Below, in pieces: positions 22,816 through 60,620 of a stretch of 64,000 nt of DNA. Each line of letters opens with the position of its first letter. Position 1 is the first letter of the stretch. The stretch comes from Escherichia coli (GTDB lineage: Bacteria > Pseudomonadota > Gammaproteobacteria > Enterobacterales > Enterobacteriaceae): assembly GCF_009931435.1 (NCBI RefSeq), contig NZ_CP043414.1, one strand, 5' to 3'. Below the pieces are notes generated by a model, which searched no databases, was not told where the DNA came from, and saw nothing but the letters and a program-made list of their open reading frames with translations. The translations under genes were made by a program, and so were the position numbers.

Positions 22816-22845
22816 ATCGCCTCCCATTAACTATTGCCAGCTACA

Positions 22846-22861
22846 AGCAATAATTGTGCCA
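22846..22861 (-). promoter_or_regulatory. sigma54 (-24/-12) promoter for hypA
   Basis: Minus strand reads TGGCACAATTATTGCT (GG-N10-GC spacing) just upstream of hypA. Confidence 0.6.
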
Positions 22862-22974
22862 GTGTTGATTATCCCTAAAGTGAATAATGTCGATGATGTC
22901 GAAATGACACGTCGACACGGCGACGAAATTCACCAGAATCCTAAAAATCTCTTTTATAACAATAAATTAAAAGT

Positions 22975-22990
22975 TGGCACAAAAAATGCT
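22975..22990 (+). promoter_or_regulatory. sigma54 (-24/-12) promoter for the hyc operon
   Basis: TGGCACAAAAAATGCT with GG-N10-GC spacing about 40 bp upstream of hycA; FhlA-type TGTCGAAATGACA motifs lie upstream (about 22880-22935). Confidence 0.6.
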
Positions 22991-23026
22991 TAAAGCTGGC
23001 ATCTCTGTTAAACGGGTAACCTGACA

Positions 23027-36851: not shown

Positions 36852-36999
36852 ACATTGTCATCACATGTCATCGTCACTAGTGTCGATGACATCGTTTTTT
36901 CTGCACTGCAGAATTTAATTTCTTTAAATAACAATCAATTAAAAGTTGGCATGATTTGTGAATGTATCGGCGCATTAACTGTCATTGCTGGAGAATTTG

Positions 37000-40058: not shown

Positions 40059-41192
40059 CTACATCGGCAAGGTTTTCAACAATCCAAACGCCTCTTTCAT
40101 CCGATCCTCACTGACCACAAAAGCGCGAAGCTGGTCAGCATCGTCAACGCCGCGCGCCACCATTCCCTGGCTTTCGGTACAAATCTGCCAGCGCAAATCC
40201 CGACGCTGGGTTTCCCCTGCCAGATGCAGCGGTAATTCCGGCGTTTTGATTTTTACCAGCATGGCGGGAAGTTTCAGCGGTGCGTTTCCACCGAGCAAGT
40301 TCTTCGCCAGCACCATCGCGCTAAGTTGAATCGGCTGCAGGAACGGCAATACCTGACCGTTAATTTCTGCGCAATCGCCCAGCGCGTAAATATCGGCATT
40401 ACTGGTTTGCAGATAACTATCGACGCAAACGCCGCGATTAATCGTCAGCCCTGTACGTCGTGCCAGGGCGGTTTCCGGGCGCAGTCCGGTGGCGGCAATT
40501 ACCGCATCCACTTCGATGCTGCGCTGGCGGTCCAGCGTTGCCAGAATACCAGAATTCGTTTTTTCCAGCCCCTGCAACTGAGATTTCAACAGCAGATGAA
40601 CGCCCATCTCCGTCAACCGATGCTGCAAGCGGCTGCTTACTTCCGGTGGCATTAACGACGCCAGAATACTGGCAGCGTTGTCGATTAGCGTGACCGCTTT
40701 GCCTGCCCGACAAAAATCCATCGCCAGCTCGCTACCAATCAAGCCACCGCCAACAATCAACACGCGTCGGGCATCCCGCAGTTGCGTTTCACAGGCGCGA
40801 TACTCTTGCTGACTATTTAACGTCAGCATTAACTCACGCCCAGACACTGGCGGGACAAAGGCACTGGCACCAGTTGCCAGCACCAGCTTGTCGTATTGCC
40901 ACTGATTATTCTGGCTTTTCACCACATGGGCTTCGGCATCGATATCCGTCACCCAGGTGTGCGGAAACAGGTGCAGATTAAACTGCTCGGCAAATTCACC
41001 CGCCGTCTGGCGGGTGAGGTCATCGGCACGTTGCCCCTGGCTGATAACATGGCTAAGATCAGGTTTGTTGTACTCATCCATGCTGTCGGCGGCAATCAGG
41101 GTTAATGGAATACTGGCGTCCTGTTTGCGAATATTTTTCACCAGTTGGCGGGCGGCGAAGCCCGAACCAATGATCACAATGCCGTTGCTCAT
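40059..41192 (-). CDS. norW: NADH:flavorubredoxin reductase
   Basis: 377-aa ORF with FAD/NAD Rossmann motifs ([16 protein letters not shown]). Confidence 0.93.
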
Positions 41193-42628
41193 TTTGCCTC
41201 CGATGCCAGTTCGTCAAAGACGTCTTTGCCAAGGGAGCATTCCGGGCACAGGAAGTTATCCGGGACTTCACTCCACGGCGTTCCTGGCGCAACGTCCTGC
41301 ATTGGCTCGCCTTTTGCCGGATCGTAAATCCACTGGCAGACGCTGCACTGCATCCGTGGGCCGAGGTCAGCCGTCGTGGTGGCACAGGTTTCTTCTTTAA
41401 CCACCGTATTCACCGTGCTCTGCGGCAGCGGCGAAAGCGCCCACTGACGGGCAATTTCACGACCGTGTTCACGGCATAACTCCAGCGCATCCTGGTCCGG
41501 TCGCCATTTGGCTTTCAGGCTAAGCGACATTTCGAAACCTGCATCCTGCAGGCGTGTGGAAAGACGATCCACCGCACCGCCGCTCCAGCCGTGAGAGCCG
41601 AAAGCACTGGCGCGTTTGTTACGGAAGCGTAATCCGGTCATCTCCTCCACCAGCCCGGCGATTTTAGGCATCATCACGTTATTCATCGTCGAAGTGCCGA
41701 CCAGCACGCCTTTTGAGCGGAAGACATTGGTCAGGATTTCGTTTTTATCGCTTCGGGCGACGTTGAAAATTTTCACCGCTACGCGCGGGTCGGTTTCCGC
41801 AATCCCCTGGGCGATAGCGTCAGCCATCATGCGGGTGTTATTCGACATGGTGTCGTAGAAAATGGTGATTCTGTCTTCCTGATAATCCGCCGCCCATTTC
41901 AGGTACAGCTCGACAATTTGCGTCGGGTTATCGCGCCACACTACACCGTGAGAGGTGGCAATCATATCGACCGGCAAGTTAAAGCCCAGGATCTCGGTGA
42001 TTTTCGGCGTTACCAGGCGGCTGAACGGTGTCAGGATATTGGCGTAGTAACGCTGACACTGCTCGAAAAGCTCGGTCTGATCCACTTCATCGTTGAAGAG
42101 ATGCTCGTCGCAGTAGTGCTGACCGAAAGCATCGTTACTGAACAGCACCGCGTCGCCCGTCAGGTAAGTCATCATGCTGTCCGGCCAGTGCAGCATTGGC
42201 GTTTCGACAAAAATGAGCTGTTTGCCGTTGCCGATATCCAGCGTGTCGCCGGTTTTCACCACGTTGAAATTCCACTCTGGATGATGGTGATGACCATTTA
42301 TTGAGTCGATAGCGTTGGCAGTACAATAGATCGGCGTATCGGGAATTTGCGCCATCAGTTCGGTCAGCGCCCCGGCGTGGTCCTCTTCAGCATGGTTAAT
42401 CACGATGTAATCGATATCCGCCAGATCGATTTCATTACGCAGGTTCTGCACAAATTCGCGGCTGAATTTATGGTCGACGGTGTCGATCAGCACGTTTTTT
42501 TCTTCGCGAATGAGGTAGCTGTTGTAGCTGCTGCCGCGCAGCGTTTTATATTCTGTACCGTGAAAATCACGCACTTCCCAGTCACGTTGACCAACCCAAT
42601 GAATGTTATTTTTCACCACAATAGACAT
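41189..42628 (-). CDS. norV: anaerobic nitric oxide reductase flavorubredoxin
   Basis: 479-aa ORF: metallo-beta-lactamase-like plus flavodoxin domains and C-terminal rubredoxin CxxC…CxxC. Confidence 0.93.
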
Positions 42629-42674
42629 AGCAACCTCAATTTATTCAGTGTGTTCTAAAAAGATGTCTTGCTAA

Positions 42675-42692
42675 TTGCAGATTGCGTGCCAG
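42675..42692 (-). promoter_or_regulatory. sigma54 (-24/-12) promoter of norVW
   Basis: Minus strand reads CTGGCACGCAATCTGCAA (GG-N10-GC). Confidence 0.7.
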
Positions 42693-42746
42693 TTTTTTAT
42701 CTGATTGTTTTTACTATATAAATAAAATTATGCTCATTAATGAGTA

Positions 42747-42802
42747 GTCAAAATGACTATCAATAAAATGGTCGATATGACAATATCTATAGTCAAATTG
42801 AC
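42747..42802. promoter_or_regulatory. three NorR enhancer sites (GT-N7-AC inverted repeats)
   Basis: gtcaaaatgac (42747-42757), gtcgatatgac (42771-42781), gtcaaattgac (42792-42802) in the norR-norV divergent region. Confidence 0.8.
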
Positions 42803-42814
42803 AGTGAGGCAAAG

Positions 42815-44329
42815 ATGAGTTTTTCCGTTGATGTGCTGGCGAATATCGCCATCGAATTGCAGCGTGGGATTGGTCATCAGGATCGTTTTCAGCGCCTGAT
42901 CACCACGCTGCGTCAGGTGCTGGAGTGCGATGCGTCTGCGTTGCTACGTTACGACTCGCGGCAGTTTATTCCGCTTGCCATCGACGGACTGGCAAAGGAT
43001 GTACTCGGTAGACGCTTTGCCCTGGAAGGTCATCCACGGCTGGAAGCGATTGCCCGCGCCGGGGACGTGGTGCGCTTTCCCGCAGACAGCGAATTGCCCG
43101 ATCCCTATGACGGTTTGATTCCCGGGCAGGAGAGTCTGAAGGTTCACGCCTGCGTTGGTCTACCGCTGTTTGCTGGACAAAACCTGATTGGCGCATTGAC
43201 GCTCGACGGGATGCAGCCCGATCAGTTCGATGTTTTCAGCGACGAGGAGTTACGGCTGATTGCCGCTCTGGCGGCGGGGGCGTTAAGCAATGCGCTGCTG
43301 ATTGAACAACTGGAAAGTCAGAATATGCTGCCGGGCGATGCCGCGCCATTTGAAGCGGTGAAAGAGACGCAGATGATCGGTCTGTCGCCAGGCATGACGC
43401 AATTGAAAAAAGAGATTGAGATTGTGGCGGCGTCCGATCTCAACGTCCTAATCAGTGGTGAGACGGGAACCGGTAAGGAATTGGTGGCGAAAGCGATTCA
43501 TGAAGCCTCGCCACGGGCGGTGAATCCGTTAGTCTATCTCAACTGTGCCGCACTGCCGGAAAGTGTGGCGGAAAGTGAGTTGTTCGGGCACGTGAAAGGG
43601 GCGTTTACTGGCGCTATCAGTAACCGCAGTGGAAAGTTTGAAATGGCGGATAACGGCACGCTGTTTCTGGATGAGATCGGCGAGTTGTCGTTGGCATTGC
43701 AGGCCAAGCTGCTGCGGGTGTTGCAGTATGGCGATATTCAGCGCGTTGGCGATGACCGCAGTTTGCGGGTCGATGTGCGCGTGCTGGCGGCGACTAACCG
43801 CGACTTGCGCGAAGAGGTGCTGGCAGGGCGATTTCGTGCTGACTTGTTTCATCGCCTGAGTGTGTTTCCGCTTTCGGTGCCGCCGCTGCGTGAGCGGGGT
43901 GATGACGTCATTCTGCTGGCGGGGTATTACTGCGAACAGTGCCGCCTGCGGTTGGGGCTTTCCCGCGTGGTGTTAAGTTCCGGGGCGCGGAATTTATTGC
44001 AACATTATAGTTTCCCGGGGAACGTGCGCGAACTGGAACATGCTATTCATCGGGCGGTGGTGCTGGCGAGAGCGACCCGCAGCGGCGATGAAGTGATTCT
44101 CGAGGCGCAACATTTTGCTTTTTCTGAGGTGACGTTGCCGACGGCAGAAGTGCCGATGGTGCCCGTTGTTAAGCAAAACCTGCGTGAAGCGACAGAAGCG
44201 TTCCAGCGTGAAACTATTCGCCAGGCGCTGGCACAAAATCATCACAACTGGGCTGCCAGCGCACGGATGCTGGAAACCGACGTCGCCAACCTGCATCGGC
44301 TGGCGAAACGTCTGGGGCTGAAGGATTAA
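42815..44329 (+). CDS. norR: NO-responsive sigma54-dependent activator NorR
   Basis: 504-aa ORF: GAF domain, AAA+ ([14 protein letters not shown]), C-terminal HTH. Confidence 0.93.
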
Positions 44330-56774: not shown

Positions 56775-56867
56775 GGTGAGGTGGCCGAGAGGCTGAAGGC
56801 GCTCCCCTGCTAAGGGAGTATGCGGTCAAAAGCTGCATCCGGGGTTCGAATCCCCGCCTCACCGCCA
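56775..56867 (+). tRNA. serV: tRNA-Ser (anticodon GCU)
   Basis: 93-nt sequence ggtgaggtggccgagaggctgaaggcgctcccctgctaagggag…cgcctcaccgcca with long variable arm, anticodon loop cuGCUaa, encoded CCA. Confidence 0.95.
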
Positions 56868-56870
56868 TTT

Positions 56871-56947
56871 GCATCCGTAGCTCAGCTGGATAGAGTACTC
56901 GGCTACGAACCGAGCGGTCGGAGGTTCGAATCCTCCCGGATGCACCA
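56871..56947 (+). tRNA. argV: tRNA-Arg (anticodon ACG), copy 1
   Basis: 77-nt gcatccgtagctcagctggatagagtactcggctACGaaccgagcggtcggaggttcgaatcctcccggatgcacca. Confidence 0.95.
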
Positions 56948-57146
56948 TATTCTACGAAATCTTCAGCAATGAAGGTGTCGAAGAGGTGGCGGTACTAACC
57001 GCAAGCACCAGGGAGGATAACGTTGCTTTAGCAACGGCCCGAAGGGCGAGCCGTAAGGCGAGTAATCCTCCCGGATGCACCATCTCTTACTTGATACGGC
57101 TTTAGTAGCGGTATCAAAAAATCTGCAGTAAAGTAAGTTTCCCGAT

Positions 57147-57223
57147 GCATCCGTAGCTCAGCTGGATAGAGTACTCGGCTACGAACCGAGCGGTCGGAGG
57201 TTCGAATCCTCCCGGATGCACCA
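57147..57223 (+). tRNA. argY: tRNA-Arg (ACG), copy 2
   Basis: Identical 77-nt sequence. Confidence 0.95.
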
Positions 57224-57286
57224 TCTCTTACTTGATATGGCTTTAGTAGCGATATCAATATCAGCAGTAAAGTAAGTTCTCCCGAT

Positions 57287-57363
57287 GCATCCGTAGCTCA
57301 GCTGGATAGAGTACTCGGCTACGAACCGAGCGGTCGGAGGTTCGAATCCTCCCGGATGCACCA
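57287..57363 (+). tRNA. argZ: tRNA-Arg (ACG), copy 3
   Basis: Identical 77-nt sequence. Confidence 0.95.
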
Positions 57364-57561
57364 TATTCTCCGAAATCTTCAGCAATGAAGATATCGAAGA
57401 GGTAGCGGAATTAACCGCAGGCACCAGGAAGGATAACGTTGCTTTAGCAACGGCCCGAAGGGCGAGCCGCAAGGCGAGTAATCCTCCCGGATGCACCATC
57501 TCTTATTTGATATGGCTTTAGTAGCGGTATCAATATCAGCAGTAAAGTAATTTCTCCCGAT

Positions 57562-57638
57562 GCATCCGTAGCTCAGCTGGATAGAGTACTCGGCTACGAA
57601 CCGAGCGGTCGGAGGTTCGAATCCTCCCGGATGCACCA
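57562..57638 (+). tRNA. argQ: tRNA-Arg (ACG), copy 4
   Basis: Identical 77-nt sequence. Confidence 0.95.
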
Positions 57639-60547: not shown

Positions 60548-60620
60548 AAAAAGGCCACTCGTGAGTGGCCAAAATTTCATCTCTGAATTCAGGGATGATG
60601 ATAACAAATGCGCGTCTTTC
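60548..60620 (-). ncRNA. micA: MicA (SraD) sRNA
   Basis: Minus strand reads GAAAGACGCGCATTTGTTATCATCATCCCTGAATTCAGAGATGAAATTTTGGCCACTCACGAGTGGCCTTTTT, matching MicA including its terminator hairpin; lies between gshA and luxS. Confidence 0.9.

Follow-up and report, generated by a model that had tools for sequence, protein, structure and literature searches.

An unaltered NorR enhancer and norV sigma-54 promoter in the norR–norVW intergenic region of an Escherichia coli genome

Does the DNA between the divergent norR and norV genes of this Escherichia coli strain hold the elements of a nitric oxide (NO) switch, and are these elements in their usual state? The original prediction, made for positions 42675-42802 of the window (the whole 64-kb stretch of DNA that was analysed), had described an intact set of three GT-N7-AC inverted repeats upstream of a sigma-54 promoter and had read them as a functional switch for NO detoxification. 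Our preferred reading, to which we give a probability of about 96%, is that the region is the native E. coli norR–norVW divergent control region and is expected to act as it does in K-12.

The setting of the region was established from the open reading frame map and from the RefSeq annotation of matching loci, which give the gene order hypF(+), norW(-), norV(-), a 186-bp gap, norR(+), and gutQ/srlR/gutM/srlD(-). The gap between the divergent norV and norR covers 42629-42814 and has 30% G+C. The three nor genes are as follows:

41189..42628, minus strand: norV, flavorubredoxin NO reductase, 479 aa, full length
40059..41192, minus strand: norW, NADH:flavorubredoxin reductase, 377 aa, with a 4-bp overlap with the end of norV
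42815..44329, plus strand: norR, NO-sensing GAF-AAA+-HTH enhancer-binding protein, 504 aa

These identities were assigned because the proteins score well over the cut-offs of their NCBIfam equivalog models (NorV, NF003954, 1046.7 bits against 711; NorW, NF003437, 679.3 bits against 392; NorR, NF003451, 820.6 bits against 476, with residues 2-503 covered), and because identical or near-identical E. coli loci carry the corresponding RefSeq annotation. Pfam places a GAF domain at residues 22-154 of NorR and Sigma54_activat at 187-353; for its short HTH domain there was no Pfam match at E <= 0.001. The intergenic region is thus flanked, as a NorR enhancer should be, by a divergent norR gene for a GAF-AAA+-HTH protein on one side and by an NO-detoxifying target, norVW, downstream. 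Within the 64-kb window, rpoN and ihfA/ihfB were not identified.

A 341-bp query spanning 42560-42900 was matched in 5425 of 5426 complete E. coli genomes, with 100% identity to the complete genome of R32_14_1F and 98.5% identity to K-12. The same genome search returned one match of the norR–norV region on a plasmid record and one genome with three copies. It is worth adding that in E. coli A1.S1.18 (NZ_CP146595.1, our locus L005, 761-1340) norR is annotated as a pseudogene with its N-terminus missing, and that the alignment has a base change at the gene start relative to other strains.

The three inverted repeats (gtcaaaatgac, gtcgatatgac, gtcaaattgac) were found on the plus strand exactly within the span that had been predicted. 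They form a tandem array with the following members, whose positions relative to norV are counted from the start proposed below:

42747..42757, no strand (GTCAAAATGAC; on the norV strand GTCATTTTGAC): NorR site 1, nearest the promoter, at about -82 to -92
42771..42781, no strand (GTCGATATGAC; on the norV strand GTCATATCGAC): NorR site 2, at about -106 to -116
42792..42802, no strand (GTCAAATTGAC; on the norV strand GTCAATTTGAC): NorR site 3, nearest norR, at about -127 to -137

From centre to centre, the sites are spaced by 24 and 21 bp, the array stands about 60 bp upstream of the TGGCAC-N5-CTGCA element, and site 3 ends 12 bp ahead of the norR ATG. The loose GT-N7-AC pattern is weak evidence by itself because the window contains 200 copies of it, with about 0.6 expected per 186 bp. 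The stricter palindrome GTC-N5-GAC has 21 copies in 64 kb, and three of them within 60 bp arose in only one of 2000 dinucleotide-preserving shuffles of the window, and never when the AT-rich intergenic segment was shuffled 200,000 times. The three-site cluster is far beyond chance. We also scanned the window with a 19-nt NorR weight matrix built from 122 sites at 41 non-Escherichia loci. Site 1 (23.5 bits), site 3 (21.1 bits) and site 2 (18.0 bits) took the first three ranks in the 64 kb, and the next match scored 13.6 bits; the scan proposed with the original prediction therefore recovers the same three sites at the top of the list, rather than placing them elsewhere or losing them.

The sites can be matched directly to experiments in K-12. 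Tucker et al. 2010 replaced GT-N7-AC by GG-N7-CC in one site at a time and also carried out footprinting (PMC2831303). With any one site altered, norV-lacZ was no longer induced in vivo, and in vitro the stimulation of ATPase activity by DNA and the formation of open complexes were lost or cut; methylation protection extended between -137 and -84 (PMC2831303). The 21-bp site-1 oligonucleotide of that study, GATAGTCATTTTGACTACTCA, has an exact match in the window; its Site1, Site2 and Site3 primers correspond to 42747-42757, 42771-42781 and 42792-42802, respectively, with site 3 in the wild-type form of the primers. The correspondence to an architecture in which all three sites are needed, which the original prediction had drawn, is thus borne out at the level of the letters, as the site sequences are those mutated in K-12. 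From this identity (PMC2831303) we predict binding of NorR at each site and NO activation that depends on all three.

A fourth GTC-N5-GAC palindrome, at 42581-42591 within norV codons 13-16 (G-Q-R-D), was considered as an additional NorR site and rejected, because it is present in only 4 of 17 orthologues (the glycine wobble position varies and the protein motif is invariant) and because the fusion fragment used by Tucker 2010, which is fully inducible, has one end within it (PMC2831303). It looks like a by-product of coding.

Downstream of the array, on the norV strand, we found the predicted sigma-54 element, with TGGCAC at 42691..42686 and CTGCA at 42680..42676, followed by a short leader:

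42676..42692, minus strand: norVW sigma-54 promoter, CTGGCACGCAATCTGCA, with GG at 42690-42689 (-25/-24) and GC at 42678-42677 (-13/-12)
42629..42665, minus strand: norV leader as inferred, about 37 nt long, in which the Shine-Dalgarno sequence GAGG precedes the ATG at 42628

GG at -24 and GC at -12 are 10 bp apart within the TGGCAC-N5-TTGCW framework that characterizes sigma-54 promoters. The element TGGCACGCAATCTGCA has one mismatch to this consensus, a C in the -12 element where the consensus has T. With up to one mismatch allowed, the pattern has three matches in the window against 3.7 expected. The pattern alone is therefore not statistically unusual, and its significance comes from its position and from its exact identity to the mapped norV motif: the 17-mer is the motif under the K-12 sigma-54 ChIP-seq peak OS25, which Bonocora et al. 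2015 assigned to norV (PMC4591121). Given a 17-mer identical to that of OS25 (PMC4591121), sigma-54 holoenzyme would be expected to occupy the norV promoter in this strain as well.

The geometry of the -12 GC, with C at 42677 taken as -12, suggests a norV transcription start near 42665. The resulting 37-nt leader agrees with the figure of 37 given for norV (PMC4591121). With a start near 42665, the sites lie between -82 and -137, in agreement with the published protection from -137 to -84 (PMC2831303) and within the range of roughly -80 to -140 upstream of a sigma-54 promoter on the target strand where a NorR enhancer is expected.

The other two sigma-54 pattern matches in the window are the hypA and hycA promoters. 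They lie divergently in the hypA–hycA intergenic region (22828-23026), at 22861..22846 on the minus strand for hypA and at 22975-22990 on the plus strand for hycA, and are identical to the ChIP-seq motifs OS28 and OS27, respectively (PMC4591121). The same region holds the fourth-best NorR-matrix match of the window (13.6 bits), the palindrome GTCGAAATGAC at 22898-22908, which is embedded in a run of TGTCG/CGACA repeats and presumably represents the FhlA enhancer. Elsewhere, the sequence TTGGCATGATTTGTGAA at 36946-36962 on the plus strand has one mismatch to the ChIP-seq motif OS26, which is assigned to hydN in K-12 (PMC4591121).

The AT-rich spacer from site 1 to the -24 element contains a candidate for the IHF site, as IHF binds between the enhancer and the norV start in K-12 (PMC2831303):

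42698..42710, minus strand: candidate IHF core, AAACAATCAGATA, with 2 mismatches to WATCAANNNNTTR

Matches of this quality are expected 5.3 times in shuffles, so that the core is weak and not significant alone; it aligns with consensus-grade cores, e.g., TATCAACAAGTTA, in other Enterobacterales, and 42710..42698 is a putative position for IHF. Directly promoter-side of site 1, at 42733-42744, there is a perfect 12-bp palindrome, CTCATTAATGAG, which in K-12 is the imperfect CCCATTAATGAG and which is not conserved in Citrobacter or Enterobacter. Simple scans of the region for a norR sigma-70 promoter gave no convincing candidate, the sole consensus-scan match being on the wrong strand; relaxed scans returned weak candidates, e.g., TAAAAT at 42764-42769. 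An Rfam scan of the intergenic region found zero RNA families. Elsewhere in the window, Rfam identified the MicA sRNA at 60549-60620 on the minus strand (83.9 bits) and, at 56775-57635 on the plus strand, five clustered tRNA genes.

These elements fit the hexamer-scaffold mechanism described in the literature (PMC2831303). In this strain, three NorR dimers would bind the three GT-N7-AC palindromes, and on this DNA scaffold they would be driven to assemble into a hexamer, held ready upstream of the promoter. On TGGCAC-N5-CTGCA, sigma-54 RNA polymerase would wait in a closed complex, with the AT-rich spacer, bent by IHF, joining hexamer and polymerase. Once NO is bound by the ferrous iron in the GAF domain of NorR, the repression of the AAA+ ATPase would be relieved, ATP hydrolysis would open the promoter, and norVW would be transcribed, its products reducing NO to N2O. 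The bound complex probably also limits norR transcription, since site 3 ends so close to the norR start codon.

Whether the switch can be called intact depends on how the region varies. We compared the gap with that of K-12 and found four single-base differences, at 42649 in the leader, at 42716 and 42734 in the spacer from site 1 to -24, and at 42765 between sites 1 and 2. None falls in a NorR site or in the -24/-12 elements. The proteins are similarly close to those of K-12: full-length NorV has 99% identity with 4 substitutions, and NorR is identical at 493 of 504 residues (98%), its 11 substitutions including C482S near or in the C-terminal DNA-binding region. There are zero substitutions in residues 1-176 (the GAF region), and the Walker A and GAFTGA motifs are unaltered. 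The description of the locus as intact thus holds for both the regulatory elements and the genes, and it suggests a functional NO-detoxification switch in this strain, as far as the sequence can indicate this.

In divergent E. coli strains whose enhancer is complete (K-12, CFT073, O157:H7 and O158:H23) and in E. albertii, the three sites and the -24/-12 elements are invariant, and variation is concentrated in the spacers. A 47-mer over sites 2 and 3 occurs exactly in 5040 E. coli records and is matched in 5415 of 5426 genomes; at least 28 of 30 bases of the site-1 block are exact in 4791 genomes, and a promoter 50-mer is matched in 5385. The 71-mer 42720-42790 occurs exactly in 7 records only. 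Position 42765 is a rare allele, A in the window and C or another base in almost all E. coli; on the norR strand, the A turns TCAAAT into TAAAAT, a better -10-like hexamer.

One natural exception to the triad was found in E. coli AF3, a human blood isolate (NZ_OZ547117.1, our locus L003, 3070-3210), where a 45-bp deletion corresponding to window positions 42750-42795 fuses site 3 to site 1. It leaves one hybrid site, CTCACTGTCATTTTGACTAC, in a 141-bp gap, and the junction is present in 1 of 5426 genomes. As all three sites are needed according to the published work, AF3 should be unable to induce norVW.

The same architecture was sought outside E. coli with the pattern GTCA-N3-TGAC, 8-20, GTC-N5-GAC, 6-18, GTCA-N3-TGAC, using one genome per species and allowing spans of 47-71 bp. 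At least 120 loci match. In 42 of the matches listed, the triad directly adjoins the start of a NorR homologue whose N-terminal part matches GAF; unrelated tandem repeats account for 44 and other loci for 34. The triads that abut norR include those of Citrobacter, Enterobacter, Kluyvera, Pseudescherichia, Morganella, Shewanella, many Pseudomonas, Stenotrophomonas, Diaphorobacter and Steroidobacter. Among the matches listed, a 56-bp span is found in 34 of 43 triads when the window is counted, the wider gap of norR-adjacent triads always lies away from norR, and the gaps are 13+10 in Enterobacterales and mostly 15+8 in Pseudomonas. Some Pseudomonas triads have no adjoining norR and lie upstream of flavohaemoglobin (hmp) or nnrS genes. 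In an alignment of 19 norR–norV gaps, the conserved parts are the three sites, an IHF-like block AATCAA-N4-TTA, TGGCAC and the Shine-Dalgarno sequence. Rodionov et al. 2005 have already published the comparative conservation of NorR sites (PMC1274295), which is also covered by the papers that Tucker 2010 cites as references 13 and 40 (PMC2831303).

Within the Pseudomonas fluorescens group, three NorR-type triads without adjoining norR (L095, 2868-3373; L107, 699-1204; L116, 2781-3287) were found upstream of a gene for a secreted protein of 116-117 aa that matches Gly-zipper weakly. An enterobacterial-style norR–norV locus is present as well in two of the genomes (L094 and L106). The secreted protein may belong to the NorR regulon as a member not yet described.

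Could the cluster be a product of chance in an AT-rich intergenic region? The abundance of GT-N7-AC in the window and a sigma-54 pattern count equal to its chance expectation would allow it, but the absence of three palindromes from all 200,000 composition-matched shuffles, the top three matrix ranks of the sites, the conservation of the architecture across genera and the identity to experimentally tested sequences leave no room for this explanation. A less simple alternative is that all elements are present and that the switch has been weakened or retuned in this lineage, through the A at 42765, the changes at 42716 and 42734 in the IHF-bending spacer, and the NorR substitutions, C482S among them. 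DNA outside the sites can matter, as sequences flanking the 66-bp triad are needed for full ATPase stimulation (PMC2831303), and the rarity of the 71-mer, together with a NorR that is 98% identical to that of K-12, is in line with such a change. However, all core positions are unaltered, spacers vary freely across E. coli lineages and genera with the architecture persisting, the GAF region, Walker A and GAFTGA are free of substitutions, and the identical 341 bp is found in the complete genome of R32_14_1F; we consider a retuned switch very unlikely.

The position of site 3 just before norR could also suggest that the palindromes are mainly autorepression operators of norR, or sites of another regulator, with norV activation being secondary, and one NorR-type site upstream of Vibrio norR2 has indeed been proposed to be autoregulatory (PMC1274295). 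An exclusive role of this kind is contradicted by the loss of norV activation, in vivo and in vitro, upon mutation of single sites (PMC2831303), and the triads upstream of hmp and nnrS lack an adjoining norR. Autorepression, moreover, goes together with the main explanation and does not compete with it, and we regard a primarily operator role as scarcely credible. The native control region acting as in K-12 therefore remains our reading, and we saw no feature of the sequence that speaks against it.

The spacing of the triads allows a more general, tentative proposal. Among the matches listed, the middle site is offset by 24+21 bp in Enterobacterales and by 26+19 bp in Pseudomonas. The outer sites at a fixed distance of about 45 bp centre to centre, the wider gap facing the target promoter and a lineage-specific middle site might together reflect a structural rule for closure of a three-dimer hexamer on DNA, although we think such a rule rather unlikely. 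The pattern is partly implicit in published site tables, e.g., for P. stutzeri, with sites at -192, -173 and -148 (PMC1274295). If the rule were true, one would expect the NO response to be tuned or abolished through the A at 42765 or the natural one-site deletion of AF3.

The NorR enhancer and norV sigma-54 promoter are a textbook E. coli feature in its usual state and are already known. A complete NorR/NorVW nitric oxide defence locus with unaltered enhancer and promoter is the E. coli default, and the finding has little import beyond annotation. It validates a call made from sequence only, and the coordinates can be used as a positive control for NorR and sigma-54 scans.

The closest known system is the norR–norVW intergenic region of K-12, which was studied by Tucker et al. 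2010 (PMC2831303) and was reportedly also described by Tucker et al. 2004, Justino et al. 2005 and Gardner et al. 2003. The window shares with it the locus, the gene order, the 186-bp gap, the three sites, the -24/-12 elements, the spacing and the promoter distance, and differs from it in four gap bases, 11 NorR substitutions and 4 NorV substitutions. The norR–norVW loci of Citrobacter, Enterobacter, Kluyvera, Pseudescherichia, Morganella and Shewanella likewise have divergent norR and norV, three palindromes over 54-56 bp (in most with gaps of 13+10), an IHF-like block and TGGCAC at -24, whereas their spacer sequences have diverged. TTGAT stands in place of CTGCA at the -12 element in the Enterobacter group, Pseudescherichia and Morganella; in this set of loci (L046, L076, L029, L098, L028 and L055, from Pseudescherichia, Enterobacter, Morganella and related genera), GA replaces the usual GC at -12 and TGGCAC is kept.

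More distant are the Pseudomonas NorR (FhpR)-type systems and norR–norAB of Ralstonia eutropha, which also have three tandem GT-N7-AC repeats over a 56-bp span beside a norR homologue (45-53% identity). For R. eutropha, sigma-54 dependence and the requirement for three sites have been reported (PMC2831303, PMC1274295). Here, in contrast to E. coli, the target is a flavohaemoglobin or NorB rather than NorVW, and the middle site is shifted, with gaps of 15+8 instead of 13+10. Within the window itself, the FhlA-controlled hypA and hycA promoters belong to another GAF-AAA+-HTH system, in which the sigma-54 promoters are divergent and a GTC-N5-GAC-like palindrome lies upstream (22898-22908), while their activator is FhlA, which responds to formate and acts on other targets.
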